Assembly: GCA_964647565.1 (NCBI GenBank) | Contig: CAZYIM010000031.1 | Coordinates: 1 to 35,497, forward strand | Length of the DNA stretch: 35,497 nt | From: an uncultured Methanosarcinales archaeon | Lineage (GTDB): Archaea > Nanobdellota > Nanobdellia > Woesearchaeales > CAZYIM01 | Direction of reading: 5' to 3' | Part shown: piece after piece, positions 10,730 to 13,002 of the stretch | Layout of the letters: the number at the start of each line of letters is the position of its first letter | Numbering within the stretch: the first letter of the stretch is position 1 | Translations under genes and position numbers: made by a program | The notes under the pieces: generated by a model | Seen by the model: only the letters and a program-made list of their open reading frames with translations | What the model was told of the DNA's origin: nothing | The model's database searches: none

Positions 10730-10862
10730 TGGGCCCGCCCGGACTTCCATCAAAGATATCGATTGAACTACATCTTGTTTTGAACCGGGGACATCCACCT
10801 TGTGAAGGTGGCGTCATCTTCCGCACATCTCTTCAATGTGTACCGGACTAGACCACGGGCCC
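10730..10862 (-). tRNA. tRNA-Val(CAC) with two non-canonical introns (20/21, 24 nt, 10818-10841; 59/60, 35 nt, 10744-10778)
   Basis: Removing both introns gives a 74-nt cloverleaf: GGGCCCGTGGTCTAGTCCGGT^ATGACGCCACCTTCACAAGGTGGATGTCCCCGGTTCAAA^TCCGGGCGGGCCCA. Anticodon at 10802-10804; BHB-like junctions; CCA not encoded. Confidence 0.92.
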
Positions 10863-10961
10863 AAAAAATATAATTTTCCGTGGGACTGAGCCTGAAGCGA
10901 ACGTCGCACATTCCCGATCAAACCTGAAAAGGTTTGCCGCGACTAGACCACGGGCCCAAAA
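10846..10961. repeat. 21-bp perfect direct repeat covering the tRNA-Val 5' end (10846-10866 and 10941-10961)
   Basis: gactagaccacgggcccaaaa occurs twice, 95 bp apart. Confidence 0.95.
10878..10957 (-). ncRNA. tRNA-like structured element or 5' tRNA fragment
   Basis: Starts with the first 17 nt of tRNA-Val, then a CAAACCT/AGGTTTG hairpin, a GTCGC/GCGAC pairing, and CAGGCTC(A), which can pair 6/7 with the acceptor 5' strand. Confidence 0.4.
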
Positions 10962-10964
10962 GCA

Positions 10965-12092
10965 TCATAAAAATTCCACTTCTAACTCTAGTTCGTCGTA
11001 AGTAGGATATTCGTGAATGATGGCAGCTTTAAATTGTTTTTCCTTTATCTTAGAAGCCAGTTTCTTGACCATTTTAACCGACATCAACAACCGAGGTTTG
11101 TGCTCATCAATAAGACAATCCTTTGACTTTAATTTAAGCAACTTCTTCAGTTCACCCAATTGAACAAGGCATTTTTTCCGTTTACCAGTCTTCAGATTTC
11201 TTATCGATTCATTGTAGCCAAAGCCAGGAGCCAGATCTTCAGGATATACCGCACCCCTAATCAATGTACCGCCAACCATGATCCTATCAAAAAGCTTGGC
11301 AATGCCTTGAGCCCGTTTCTTTATCCTCTCAGCTAACTGAACCCTATCTTTCAATGTAGTGGTACAATAGTGGACATTAATGCCTTTTTTTTCACAATAT
11401 TTTAACAATTTCAAAGCAATTTCTTGACTACCCTTAACACCATAAGATATTCTATCTTTTGTCCTAAATCCTTGATCAACCAGATGATTGGCGTTTGAAT
11501 CAGATATCTCAAGTTCATTAATATTTAAGAATTCGATATTAGGTGCAATGAAATCGATCAGCTTTTTGGTCTGTTGTAGTTTACCTGGAATTGAGGGGAT
11601 CTCGACACCCACAGACCAATCAAACTGTTTTGCAAGCCTTATCTTTTTCCATAACCTATCATCACTAATATCTGGATGAAATCGTATCTCGTCAAGACCT
11701 GCATTATAGAGTTGCCTTAACTTTTTTTGATCAACCAAATTAAGGGGTGTATAGAGATGTATATGAAATTTTTTTCCAAATGCCTTTTTCAGGCTTCTTA
11801 TATTAAAACAGGTTCTCCAAAGCTTGCACAATGGATCACCACCAGTAATGCCCGCACCCTTTGCACTGCATAGCTTGGCCTCTTTAATTATATTTTTTAT
11901 ATTCCTAGTTGGCATCTCATTGGCATAAACTACATCCTTATCCTTCTTAAGATCAGAAATAGGGCAGTATAGGCACTGTTTAGAACAAAGACCTGTTATA
12001 AAAAGTACCAATTTCTCACCCTTAACGCAGAGCTGACATCCTTTTGACAGACTACCGATCTTCCAAGAATAATAAGCTGTCTTCTTGATCAT
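10965..12092 (-). CDS. Archaeal radical SAM protein (COG2108-like, PFL-activating-enzyme related)
   Basis: GCQLCVKGEKLVLFITGLCSKQCLYCPIS (CxxxCxxC), GITGGDP, LDEIRFHP, LNINELE. Start MIKKT at 12092 avoids overlap with the divergent gene. Confidence 0.88.
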   Translation of the reverse strand: MIKKTAYYSWKIGSLSKGCQLCVKGEKLVLFITGLCSKQCLYCPISDLKKDKDVVYANEMPTRNIKNIIKEAKLCSAKGAGITGGDPLCKLWRTCFNIRSLKKAFGKKFHIHLYTPLNLVDQKKLRQLYNAGLDEIRFHPDISDDRLWKKIRLAKQFDWSVGVEIPSIPGKLQQTKKLIDFIAPNIEFLNINELEISDSNANHLVDQGFRTKDRISYGVKGSQEIALKLLKYCEKKGINVHYCTTTLKDRVQLAERIKKRAQGIAKLFDRIMVGGTLIRGAVYPEDLAPGFGYNESIRNLKTGKRKKCLVQLGELKKLLKLKSKDCLIDEHKPRLLMSVKMVKKLASKIKEKQFKAAIIHEYPTYDELELEVEFL

Positions 12093-12153
12093 TCGACGAT
12101 AAAACCAAGGTTTATTAATAAAGTTTATTAATAAATTCATCTTCCCACTCCTC

Positions 12154-13002
12154 ATGAAACAGGCAAAGATTGGAATGATAGGATTTCCAGTTGAAGCAAA
12201 GAGCTGGCGCCTAGATGTCGAAAATATGGATTTTGGACTTGATGATTTTCTCATACCTGAAAAAACCAACCGAGTCAGAGAGCATATCAAAGAAAAACAT
12301 CCAGATATAACTGATCTTGGGGAATATGATTTCGGATATGACTTTAGCGATATCCACTATCGGCAAATGCCAAATATTCTTTATCAAAGTTGGCTACGCC
12401 AATATAAAACTATTACTAACGAACAAGTCTGGGAAGCAAGAGATCATGTGCTGAATGTAAAGAAAGATTTCGACAAATTTCTCTGCATAGCACCATCCCA
12501 CATTCTGGGCGTAACCCTTTATGAAGATGATGATTTTGTAGCCAGATTAGATGCTCATGGAGACTATTTCCCTCTCAGCGATAGGGAGAAAGAGGACAAC
12601 CCCATCGGGTTAAGTCATGCAAGATATATGAATCATGTTGAACAAAAGTTCCCGCATGCAACCATATATAACTACGGAGTTCTTGACTTCAAGAAAATTG
12701 CCGAAGAGGAAGGAAGAGAGCTCGTAGGGGGCGACATGACCTATTATGGTGAGTTAAAAAACATATCAGAAATAGATTTCCCATTCAACCACATCGATAT
12801 TGATATGGATGCATTTGAAAGTAAGAATGGTTTTACAAGAAGTCATTTCTATTCTGACCTTGAGCCAGAGCAATTATTTGAGTTGGTAACTCTTTCAAAT
12901 CCAAGTAAAATAGGACTTTATGAGTTTTCTACAATGTGGGGAACATCGGTTTTAAAGTTCGCAGACCTGCTCATTACCACCTGGAAAGAAGCAGACAATT
13001 AG
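12154..13002 (+). CDS. Divergent arginase/ureohydrolase-fold protein
   Basis: RLDAHGD and HIDIDMDAF metal-ligand motifs; APSH in place of GGDH. Confidence 0.6.
   Translation: MKQAKIGMIGFPVEAKSWRLDVENMDFGLDDFLIPEKTNRVREHIKEKHPDITDLGEYDFGYDFSDIHYRQMPNILYQSWLRQYKTITNEQVWEARDHVLNVKKDFDKFLCIAPSHILGVTLYEDDDFVARLDAHGDYFPLSDREKEDNPIGLSHARYMNHVEQKFPHATIYNYGVLDFKKIAEEEGRELVGGDMTYYGELKNISEIDFPFNHIDIDMDAFESKNGFTRSHFYSDLEPEQLFELVTLSNPSKIGLYEFSTMWGTSVLKFADLLITTWKEADN

Follow-up and report, generated by a model that had tools for sequence, protein, structure and literature searches.

How does a partial copy of a tRNA 5' end come to lie directly upstream of an intact tRNA gene with the same beginning? The question is raised by a 35,497-nt stretch of archaeal DNA (contig CAZYIM010000031.1, positions 1 to 35,497; hereafter the window), in which a preliminary description, made from the letters alone, had marked a structured, tRNA-sized element at 10867..10961 of the minus strand, beside a tRNA-Val gene. 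We found that the non-tRNA part of this feature, here called element E, belongs to a family of two-hairpin elements that recurs at the ends of many tRNA genes between duplicated pieces of those genes, and that also occurs inside tRNA genes as an intron. Our best reading, to which we give a probability of about three in four, is that the 95-nt feature is the footprint of a non-autonomous, intron-like member of a mobile family that inserted with duplication of its target. Throughout, G000 denotes the genome of the window (2.68 Mb in 86 contigs, 87% complete), other G numbers denote further genomes, C numbers are contigs of G000, and L numbers are extracted loci.

An insert between two copies of a tRNA 5' end

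A repeat search of the whole window returned an exact 21-nt direct repeat on the minus strand (10941-10961 and 10846-10866) at a spacing of 95, so that the 21-bp repeat reported in the preliminary description, shared with the tRNA directly downstream, is present as described. Only two families of direct repeats of at least 16 nt within 300 nt were detected in the entire 35.5-kb window, this pair among them. The repeated sequence consists of TTTT followed by the initial 17 nt of the tRNA (that is, -4 to +17), and pairwise alignment of the flanks showed that the similarity continues imperfectly for 3 nt more (CGG, corresponding to C17a-G18-G19) past a 1-nt insertion. Between the two repeats lies a 74-nt insert that contains no open reading frame (ORF) and stands directly upstream of a two-intron tRNA-Val(CAC) gene. 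The features of the locus are the following, with the basis of each in brackets.

10941..10961, minus strand: DR1, the upstream copy of the 21-nt repeat, a stub covering -4 to +17 of tRNA-Val(CAC) (exact repeat)
10937..10940, minus strand: linker GCGG, an imperfect prolongation of the duplication, being the CGG of the tRNA plus one extra G (flank alignment)
10919..10936, minus strand: hairpin 1 of E, CAAACC / loop / GGUUUG (RNAalifold of 7 copies; covariation in 80 copies)
10910..10918, minus strand: segment joining hairpins 1 and 2, AUCGGGAAU (alignment; identical in the copy of G034, a genome of another family)
10880..10909, minus strand: hairpin 2 of E, with outer stem GUGCGAC/GUCCCAC containing a C-C mismatch, internal loop GUUC/UCA and a short, variable inner hairpin (covariation)
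10867..10879, minus strand: A/T-rich tail of the insert, GGAAAAUUAUAUU, differing in sequence and length among copies (tail comparison)
10846..10866, minus strand: DR2, the downstream repeat copy, which is the true tRNA 5' end plus 4 nt of leader (exact repeat)
10730..10862, minus strand: gene for tRNA-Val(CAC), twice interrupted (ARAGORN call after in-silico removal of the interruptions; sequence reading)
10965..12290, minus strand: gene for a radical-SAM protein, the upstream neighbour and not part of E (ORF list; Pfam PF04055, E-value = 9e-14)

Neither ARAGORN nor Rfam made a call in the window, and tRNA-Val(CAC) thus goes undetected in the unedited sequence because its gene is interrupted twice, by 22 nt in the D-loop (within 10821-10845) and by 34-37 nt in the T-loop (about 10745-10779). 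When both segments were removed in silico, ARAGORN reported tRNA-Val(CAC). A tRNA was called in 2496 of 10368 combinations of boundaries, and the eight commonest categories of call (1916 calls) were all Val(cac), with lengths of 71-78 nt. With regard to read support for the repeat, one of the checks proposed for this locus, a Logan contig (run X3, record 8; 552 nt) covers 10769-11200 without differences and bridges both repeat copies. This run may be the source sample, so the contig is weak though sufficient evidence that the repeat is not an assembly artefact.

The stop codon of the radical-SAM gene lies 3 nt ahead of DR1. The second family of direct repeats in the window, at 28-87, comprises three overlapping 30-nt copies (CAGCTTCAGGCTCCT-like units; 70-100% identity, 15-nt spacing) that are probably coding tandem repeats.

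Element E is a conserved two-hairpin module

E consists of two hairpins (about 56-65 nt in all) and a variable A/T-rich tail, and its 5' end is precise at CAA. In hairpin 1 the CAA...UUG(A) base is constant and the interior covaries (RNAalifold, 7 copies), while hairpin 2 combines an outer stem of 6-7 bp with an internal loop of AUUC or GUUC opposite UCA and a variable inner hairpin. The 30-nt 5' half of the window copy recurs identically in G034. We built a covariance model (R1) from 7 copies, following an nhmmer profile, and it matches the window at 10874-10945 with 76.4 bits. Covariation in relatives, which the preliminary description had named as a check, was observed for this two-hairpin core. 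When 80 copies drawn from 70 sources were aligned, compensatory changes were seen in 17 of the 17 model pairs, comprising 7/7 pairs of helix 1, with 91% of cells paired, and 10/10 pairs of helices 2 and 3. Overall, 89.6% of cells were paired, compared with 67.4 +/- 0.8% in column shuffles, none of which (0/500) reached the observed value. Sliding the partner by 1-3 columns left 32-40% of cells paired (at most 40.2%). These percentages need to be read with the consideration that the 80-copy alignment was fitted to the model and hence favours it, and that the slid controls use the identical alignment.

This fold bears on several earlier claims. The single-sequence fold of the window copy is no better than that of shuffled sequences (z = -0.97), and the paralogues do not keep the acceptor-like closure that had been proposed for the 95-nt segment, so the closure does not stand as a conserved feature. 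A tRNA-mimicking non-coding RNA is likewise not indicated, the conserved fold being two hairpins and not a cloverleaf. The motif ATGTGCG, thought to have been kept from the D-loop intron of the tRNA, lies within the stem (GUGCGAC/GUCCCAC) that is conserved in all family members, and therefore need not derive from that intron. Rfam 15 gave no match in the window at the gathering score, and a permissive search (E-value <=1) of 18 E-bearing loci gave tRNA and one sub-threshold snoRNA match, and nothing else.

Copies at tRNA ends share repeats and polarity

A blastn-short search of the whole of G000 with the 91-nt element found two more copies of its non-tRNA part, on C36 and C12. The C36 copy repeats the architecture of the window, in that 18 nt duplicated from another tRNA's 5' end are followed by a core of about 65 nt with an A-rich tail and then by the complete tRNA. 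R1 recovered 11 matches in G000 at an E-value <=0.003. Five of them (window, C36, C8, C26 and C21) lie directly upstream of five different tRNA genes in the sense orientation, each preceded by a perfect copy of its own tRNA from -2..-6 to +12..+28 (repeats of 14-33 nt). The CGG linker of the window is also present in the C36 and C8 copies. One copy is antisense, just past the 3' end of the C8 tRNA-Ser, and is flanked by a 22-nt copy of that end and its trailer. Another lies within the T-loop of a three-intron tRNA (C26:32968-33220), and three, of which C2 has two and C11 one, are inside 225-nt elements with a terminal helix of 14 bp. The remaining copy (C12:52330-52512; L005, L011) stands antisense between direct repeats of 46-57 nt at the 3' end of a 425-aa ORF, which now stops in the E tail, so that the insertion altered the C-terminus of the protein. 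In total, six tRNA ends in G000, belonging to five different tRNA genes, carry related inserts. The window and C12 copies both neighbour radical-SAM genes. We rejected a link between the two, given that the proteins have only the generic core in common (24% identity over 107 aa) and the adjacency is therefore coincidental.

Across genomes we counted 20 repeat-flanked copies at tRNA ends, of which 11 are upstream and sense and 9 are downstream and antisense, with repeats of 11-33 nt taken from the tRNA's own end (one further antisense case with an 8-nt repeat was left out of this count). Over all repeat-flanked copies, including those away from tRNA genes, the duplications measure 11-57 nt. All 20 of the 20 copies at tRNA ends are turned with the 3' tail of E towards the intact tRNA. 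For the upstream copies this polarity can be put down to selection, since the reverse orientation would set a T-run before the tRNA. The polarity of the downstream copies is beyond the reach of selection, and the rule is therefore probably mechanistic.

The positions of the repeat boundaries are also restricted. The outer boundary lies at -6 to +1 of the tRNA in upstream copies and a few nucleotides past the 3' end, in the T-rich trailer, in downstream copies. Normal tRNA promoters of G000 have a TATA-like box at about -35 to -25, which places the upstream outer boundary about where transcription should start. The inner boundary follows G18G19 in about 7 of the 11 upstream copies and falls in or beside the T-loop in most downstream copies, and these inner boundaries coincide with the sites occupied by intron copies of E. 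In at least eight alignments the repeat continues towards E with mismatches or indels while its outer part is perfect, the one extra G before CGG in the window being such a case. Repeat-E-repeat-E arrays were found at a single tRNA end in G019, G035 and G036. An outward extension of the repeats into the A/T-rich tail was considered and set aside, as it was no better than in composition-matched shuffles in 18 of 20 rows (73-486 of 500 shuffles reached it) and borderline in C12 (46/500) and G034a (41/500), with 20 of the 22 cases computed. The exact repeat boundaries were therefore kept.

The same family occurs as tRNA introns

Members of the family are tRNA introns in the anticodon loop, the D-loop and the T-loop, the window copy itself being outside the tRNA. 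In L096, E fills the anticodon-loop intron of a Val-like tRNA, for which ARAGORN calls a 75-nt intron at position 35 and names the anticodon differently. In L091 and L102, E begins right after G18G19 of the D-loop, and in several genomes it begins after about position 58, in the T-loop. Deletion of E restored tRNA-Ala(CGC), tRNA-Glu(UUC), tRNA-Glu(CUC) and, with a second intron removed, tRNA-Arg(UCG). Five of the ten intron candidates were confirmed, L096 included. Most T-loop copies, and the D-loop copy L102, carry a 3' extension that is complementary, by eye, to the first 8-11 nt of E, and such a pairing would close the intron beside the putative splice sites. The earlier suggestion of an intron-mobility intermediate thus holds in part, in that the family of the insert is a true tRNA intron elsewhere. 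The part that did not hold concerns the window copy, which sits outside the tRNA, between target duplications.

Intervening segments are widespread in this genome. In the whole 2.68 Mb of G000, ARAGORN found 18 tRNA genes and the Rfam tRNA model 11, and most tRNA genes are interrupted two or three times (in the D-, anticodon and T-loops) and escape standard finders. The Val(UAC) gene at C15:46152-46268, for example, has two introns and is miscalled by ARAGORN as Thr(tgt). A shared motif, (A)ACGAAGUGAA, follows the tRNA calls at C1:106831-106953, C3:26110-26603, C4:66107-66259 and C63:5433-5572. It is followed in turn by sequence complementary to the tRNA's own 3' end, and the same motif ends the 225-nt elements. 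The motif may be an unrecognised intron or a processing stem, or the 3' ends given by ARAGORN may be wrong.

Distribution and further settings of E

R1 matched 15 of 41 relatives at an E-value <=0.01 and 36 of 151 genomes of the window's order at an E-value <=0.001 (a tally that counts one unpublished genome, G131, on which nothing else here rests). In a phylum-level sample of 151 genomes, 24 matched at an E-value <=1e-4 and all 24 belong to the window's order. An exact-pattern scan of 185,579 species genomes, for which roughly 4 chance matches were estimated, yielded 22 loci. Twelve came from one metagenome-assembled genome (MAG) of Candidatus Woesearchaeota, one from another Woesearchaeota MAG, two from a Nanoarchaeota MAG, one from an entry named 'archaeon' and one from Archaeon GW2011_AR15. 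Two Planktomarina loci are apparently coding and do not have the fold. Three further loci (L099, L104 and L113) are on contigs of a 'Candidatus Aminicenantes bacterium' MAG, a bin that is probably mislabelled or contaminated by a Woesearchaeota-type genome. As far as searched, the family thus appears to be confined to one archaeal order. Copy number ranges from 0 to 23 matches, the highest value being found in the 1-Mb genome G053. In G057, eight copies have identical scores and several of them are at contig ends, as expected of recently multiplied repeats.

Apart from tRNA genes, E occurs at some non-tRNA sites and as a domain of larger multi-copy structured non-coding elements. The 225-nt non-coding elements of G000, 90-94% alike, are L001:190-411 (C2:59789-60010), L002 (C2:77729-78021) and L003 (C11:14900-15125, minus strand). 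Each contains the E module and the 14-bp terminal helix and lies between unrelated genes, and one has a 60-nt insertion in hairpin 2. G053 has at least 14 copies of an element of about 300 nt in which E is an internal domain (L046:290-590 and 13 further loci, within L045-L063), and in G130 a 110-nt version, closed by a perfect 12-bp helix, is present in four or more identical copies. The element of about 300 nt forms nested long-range helices with compensatory and G-U-compatible changes (RNAalifold, six copies), 18 of 80 pairs being changed on both sides in these six copies, and it has no Rfam match. By eye, a TATA-like box can be seen 17-35 nt ahead of most of its G053 copies. Genes neighbouring the 225-nt copies and the larger elements were also considered as possible mobilisers and rejected, as they are housekeeping genes or of unknown function and include no transposase.

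A possible route of insertion

For the window, the sequence of events would be as follows. E would have inserted into the D-loop of tRNA-Val(CAC) just after G18G19, and the target from about -4 to G19 would have been duplicated, leaving a dead stub (DR1), then E, then an intact tRNA gene starting from DR2. The stub keeps the old upstream context, and transcription should therefore enter through stub and E, starting at the old promoter ahead of DR1 and running on into the tRNA. RNase P would then cut at the true +1 and remove stub and E as a 5' leader, so that the insertion would be tolerated. RNase P RNA is encoded in G000 (C4:43480-43776; 89 bits against a threshold of 84).

How E moves is a separate matter. 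Rating the idea at somewhat below even odds, we suggest that E moves by copying on a free template and not by cut-and-paste with a transposase. In such a process, a 3' end of genomic DNA at a transcription-unit border would anneal to the A/T-rich tail of a free E, of which excised intron RNA, with just the ends required, would be the simplest form. E would be copied from the tail to its 5' end, and synthesis would then return to the chromosome, re-entering it between a few and a few dozen bases behind the departure point. Such re-entry would give duplications that vary in length as well as a fixed polarity. The process would resemble target-primed or template-switch copying. Copying is favoured by the variable repeat length, the strict polarity, the A/T-rich variable tail and the precise CAA 5' end, and also by the clustering of errors beside the 5' junction, the stacked arrays and the placement of outer boundaries at transcription-unit edges. 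A more specific version, which we regard as doubtful, would make E an RNA-mediated mobile tRNA intron whose excised RNA, starting at CAA and ending in an A/T-rich tail, is copied back into DNA by a cellular polymerase with no reverse transcriptase, either canonical or encoded by E. Priming would then occur from 3' ends at transcription-unit borders or in tRNA loop-coding DNA, and the point of re-entry would decide between a new intron and a repeat-flanked copy beside the gene.

A number of observations weigh against insertion of a mobile E or against its movement by copying. No sign of a mobilising enzyme was obtained. RVT_1 is present in 6 of 41 genomes, in none of the 15 that bear E and in one of five multi-copy genomes, and the RNA-templated step is therefore one without a known polymerase, although a divergent or host-supplied reverse-transcribing activity may exist. 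The TnpB Zn-ribbon (PF07282) and Cas1 (PF01867) were each found in 0 of 5 genomes, and the Y1 transposase (PF01797) in 10 of 41 (2/15 bearers vs 8/26 non-bearers; none in G000). All four were discarded as mobilisers, being absent from G000 and in no case co-distributed with E. An empty site was not found, and a 37-nt pattern of flank plus repeat had no match in metagenome contigs. The congener G150 has, without E, the orthologous tRNA of one antisense copy; the alignment there is limited to the tRNA (90% over 157 nt) and does not extend to the flanks, and it is therefore not a clean empty site. Logan contigs showed no alternative joint at the repeat of the window, where two other Logan assemblies break, and there was no RNA run among 8 runs from 2 studies. 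Three tRNA-adjacent copies (G034b, G037a and L052) have no flanking repeat. Half of the intron candidates (L091, L102, L116, the C26 copy of G000 and L072) gave no ARAGORN call after deletion of E, probably because further introns remain in them. In addition, all six repeat-flanked G000 copies at tRNA ends have an upstream repeat whose tRNA-derived part is perfect, although their E copies differ by 10-30%. Such perfect repeats could reflect selection or gene conversion, and the stub is therefore possibly functional. Finally, a T6 run could terminate part of the read-through before it reaches tRNA-Val(CAC). This run stands immediately ahead of the mature 5' end (10867-10872 with 10863-10866).

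Alternative explanations

The main rival to copying is a DNA transposase with a long variable stagger. E would then move as DNA, like a miniature inverted-repeat transposable element (MITE), with a trans-acting transposase or nuclease recognising the hairpins and making long, variable staggered cuts at transcription-unit edges and gap repair producing the repeats. This is an unlikely account, if the best of the rivals. It agrees with the small size, multi-copy state and non-coding nature of E, with the 12-14-bp terminal inverted sequences that close its larger relatives, with the target duplications around many copies and with the failure to find a reverse transcriptase in bearers. The 74-nt mini form, however, has no terminal inverted repeats, and its duplications of 11-57 nt contrast with the fixed short length that transposases yield. 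The 20/20 polarity would require machinery directed at the target. In the larger forms, the terminal helices show G-U-compatible compensatory changes, which point to RNA pairing rather than to protein-binding sites, and none of TnpB, Cas1 and the Y1 transposase, the families to which the search for a transposase was limited, tracks E. Ectopic recombination between alleles with and without the intron could account for the upstream copies as well, but fails for the antisense downstream ones.

It is also conceivable, if improbable, that E is not actively mobile and represents a selected small RNA or leader module near tRNA genes, perhaps one for processing, stability or regulation, with the stub as part of the functional unit. 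The strong conservation of the fold with covariation, the frequent association with tRNA genes and the perfection of upstream repeats despite the divergence of E would be consistent with such a role, as would the TATA-like box seen by eye 17-35 nt upstream of many of the larger E-bearing elements. Half of the copies at tRNA ends, on the other hand, are antisense and downstream and cannot serve as a leader. E is also found at the end of a protein gene and, as an intron, at three positions within tRNAs, related genomes range from 0 to 23 in copy number, and identical copies at contig ends and stacked arrays at one site likewise argue against a resident module.

The preliminary description had also considered a scar of integration at the tRNA 5' end. 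The part of this claim that stands is an insertion with target duplication. The stricter version, in which the repeats are attL and attR of an integrase element of the SSV or pNOB8 kind that lost nearly all of its DNA, seems very improbable to us. A direct repeat of a tRNA end that flanks an insert and leaves the tRNA reconstituted is indeed a hallmark of archaeal integrative elements (PMC3293823). Nevertheless, the 74 nt between the repeats hold neither an ORF nor an integrase gene, the same two-hairpin module occurs at 20 different tRNA ends and as introns, repeat lengths vary, and within G000 alone five tRNA genes have related inserts. Two E patterns had no match among viral contigs. We thus do not regard the locus as an integrase attachment-site scar, because the insert is so short, is non-coding and recurs at many tRNAs.

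Stub and E might, alternatively, be the 5' half of a split tRNA that is joined in trans to a distant 3' half, as the preliminary description had proposed. As far as the D-loop, the stub does read as a correct tRNA 5' end, and what follows is not tRNA sequence. Split tRNAs were discovered in an organism of this phylum, and standard tools miss many tRNAs of G000 (see above). The observations at and around the locus nonetheless leave this reading largely refuted and hardly credible. A complete tRNA-Val(CAC) gene follows directly, 13 nt downstream, and no Val isoacceptor is missing, the GAC, UAC and CAC genes being located on C32, on C15 and in the window, respectively. The proposed search for a 3' tRNA fragment with a complementary leader (blastn-short and a pattern search of the whole 87%-complete genome) found no such partner, nor was there an orphan T-arm plus acceptor strand matching GGGCCCG. 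The relatives of the trailer in G000 are only same-sense paralogues with the same repeat architecture, and the architecture also occurs antisense at tRNA 3' ends, where a half tRNA is impossible.

An assembly artefact (a collapsed or chimeric repeat) carries negligible weight, since one Logan contig bridges the structure without difference and the same architecture occurs at other loci and in many independent genomes, even though the window comes from a MAG and two Logan assemblies break at the repeat.

Implications and comparison with known systems

The gain and movement of archaeal tRNA introns is an open question. A 2026 preprint on Asgard tRNA introns states that "how they arrive remains open" (10.64898/2026.10.13.758758). 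Our data place one family in two states, as a bona fide intron at three tRNA positions and as a freshly recognisable insertion with duplications and strict polarity at tRNA ends. The same element in both states may show how tRNA introns spread, and the insertion step leaves testable footprints in its junctions, its polarity and its duplicated lengths. There are also consequences for annotation. E introns, together with further intervening segments, explain the failure of tRNA finders in these genomes, and stubs such as that of the window should not be annotated as split tRNA halves. Another 2026 preprint, a survey of complete genomes of Nanobdellota, leaves 'missing' Trp and Val tRNAs unexplained (10.64898/2026.05.13.725050). 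Our full-text literature searches did not return a description of E.

Among known systems, the transposed bulge-helix-bulge introns of Thermoproteales (Fujishima et al. 2010, as summarised in PMC10714607 and 10.64898/2026.10.13.758758) come nearest to E in concept, in that related intervening sequences occupy different tRNA species and positions, which implies copying of introns between genes. E differs from them in occurring in Woesearchaeota-type genomes and in having a conserved, covarying two-hairpin core. Going by these sources, E is further set apart by its copies outside tRNAs, which lie between duplications of tRNA ends, downstream of tRNAs in antisense, at the end of a protein gene and within larger multi-copy structured elements.

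Next comes the Caldiarchaeum tRNA-Thr fragment, for which an integrase-based model was proposed (Sugahara et al. 2012; PMC3293823). A partial copy of a tRNA end stands there, too, upstream of a reconstituted, intron-bearing tRNA, and the window stub likewise ends where the intron of the intact copy begins. The Caldiarchaeum insert, however, is 1.8 kb long and contains a recombinase gene. Against both this case and the SSV1 and pNOB8 types, to the extent that they are covered there, E is distinguished by a 74-nt non-coding insert, by its occurrence at many tRNAs, by variable repeats and by strict polarity.

Nanoarchaeum equitans belongs to the same phylum, and its split tRNA genes (Randau et al. 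2005, as summarised in 10.64898/2026.05.13.725050) share with the window a stand-alone 5' tRNA piece followed by non-tRNA sequence. They differ from it in that no complementary 3' half was found for the window stub, the full gene adjoins it, and its trailer is a structured module and not a GC-rich pairing arm.

With MITEs and REPINs, E has in common that it is short, hairpin-forming, multi-copy and intergenic. Unlike these, its mini form has no inverted termini, its duplications are long and variable, and no partner transposase was found (Y1/RAYT being uncorrelated with E).

Short interspersed elements (SINEs) and the Dictyostelium elements TRE5 and TRE3, which are non-long-terminal-repeat retrotransposons that target tRNA genes, provide a further comparison. 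E resembles them in being small and non-coding, with an A-rich 3' tail, variable target duplications and orientation-specific insertion at both ends of tRNA genes. The variation in duplication length and the fixed polarity were both observed, while the tails are A/T-rich rather than pure poly-A. E is distinct from these elements in being archaeal, in the distribution of RVT_1 (0/15 bearers and 1/5 multi-copy genomes) and in doubling as a tRNA intron. If E does move through RNA, it would give a first mechanistic trace of the arrival of bulge-helix-bulge introns in archaea, and it would represent an archaeal counterpart of the SINEs that target tRNA genes.

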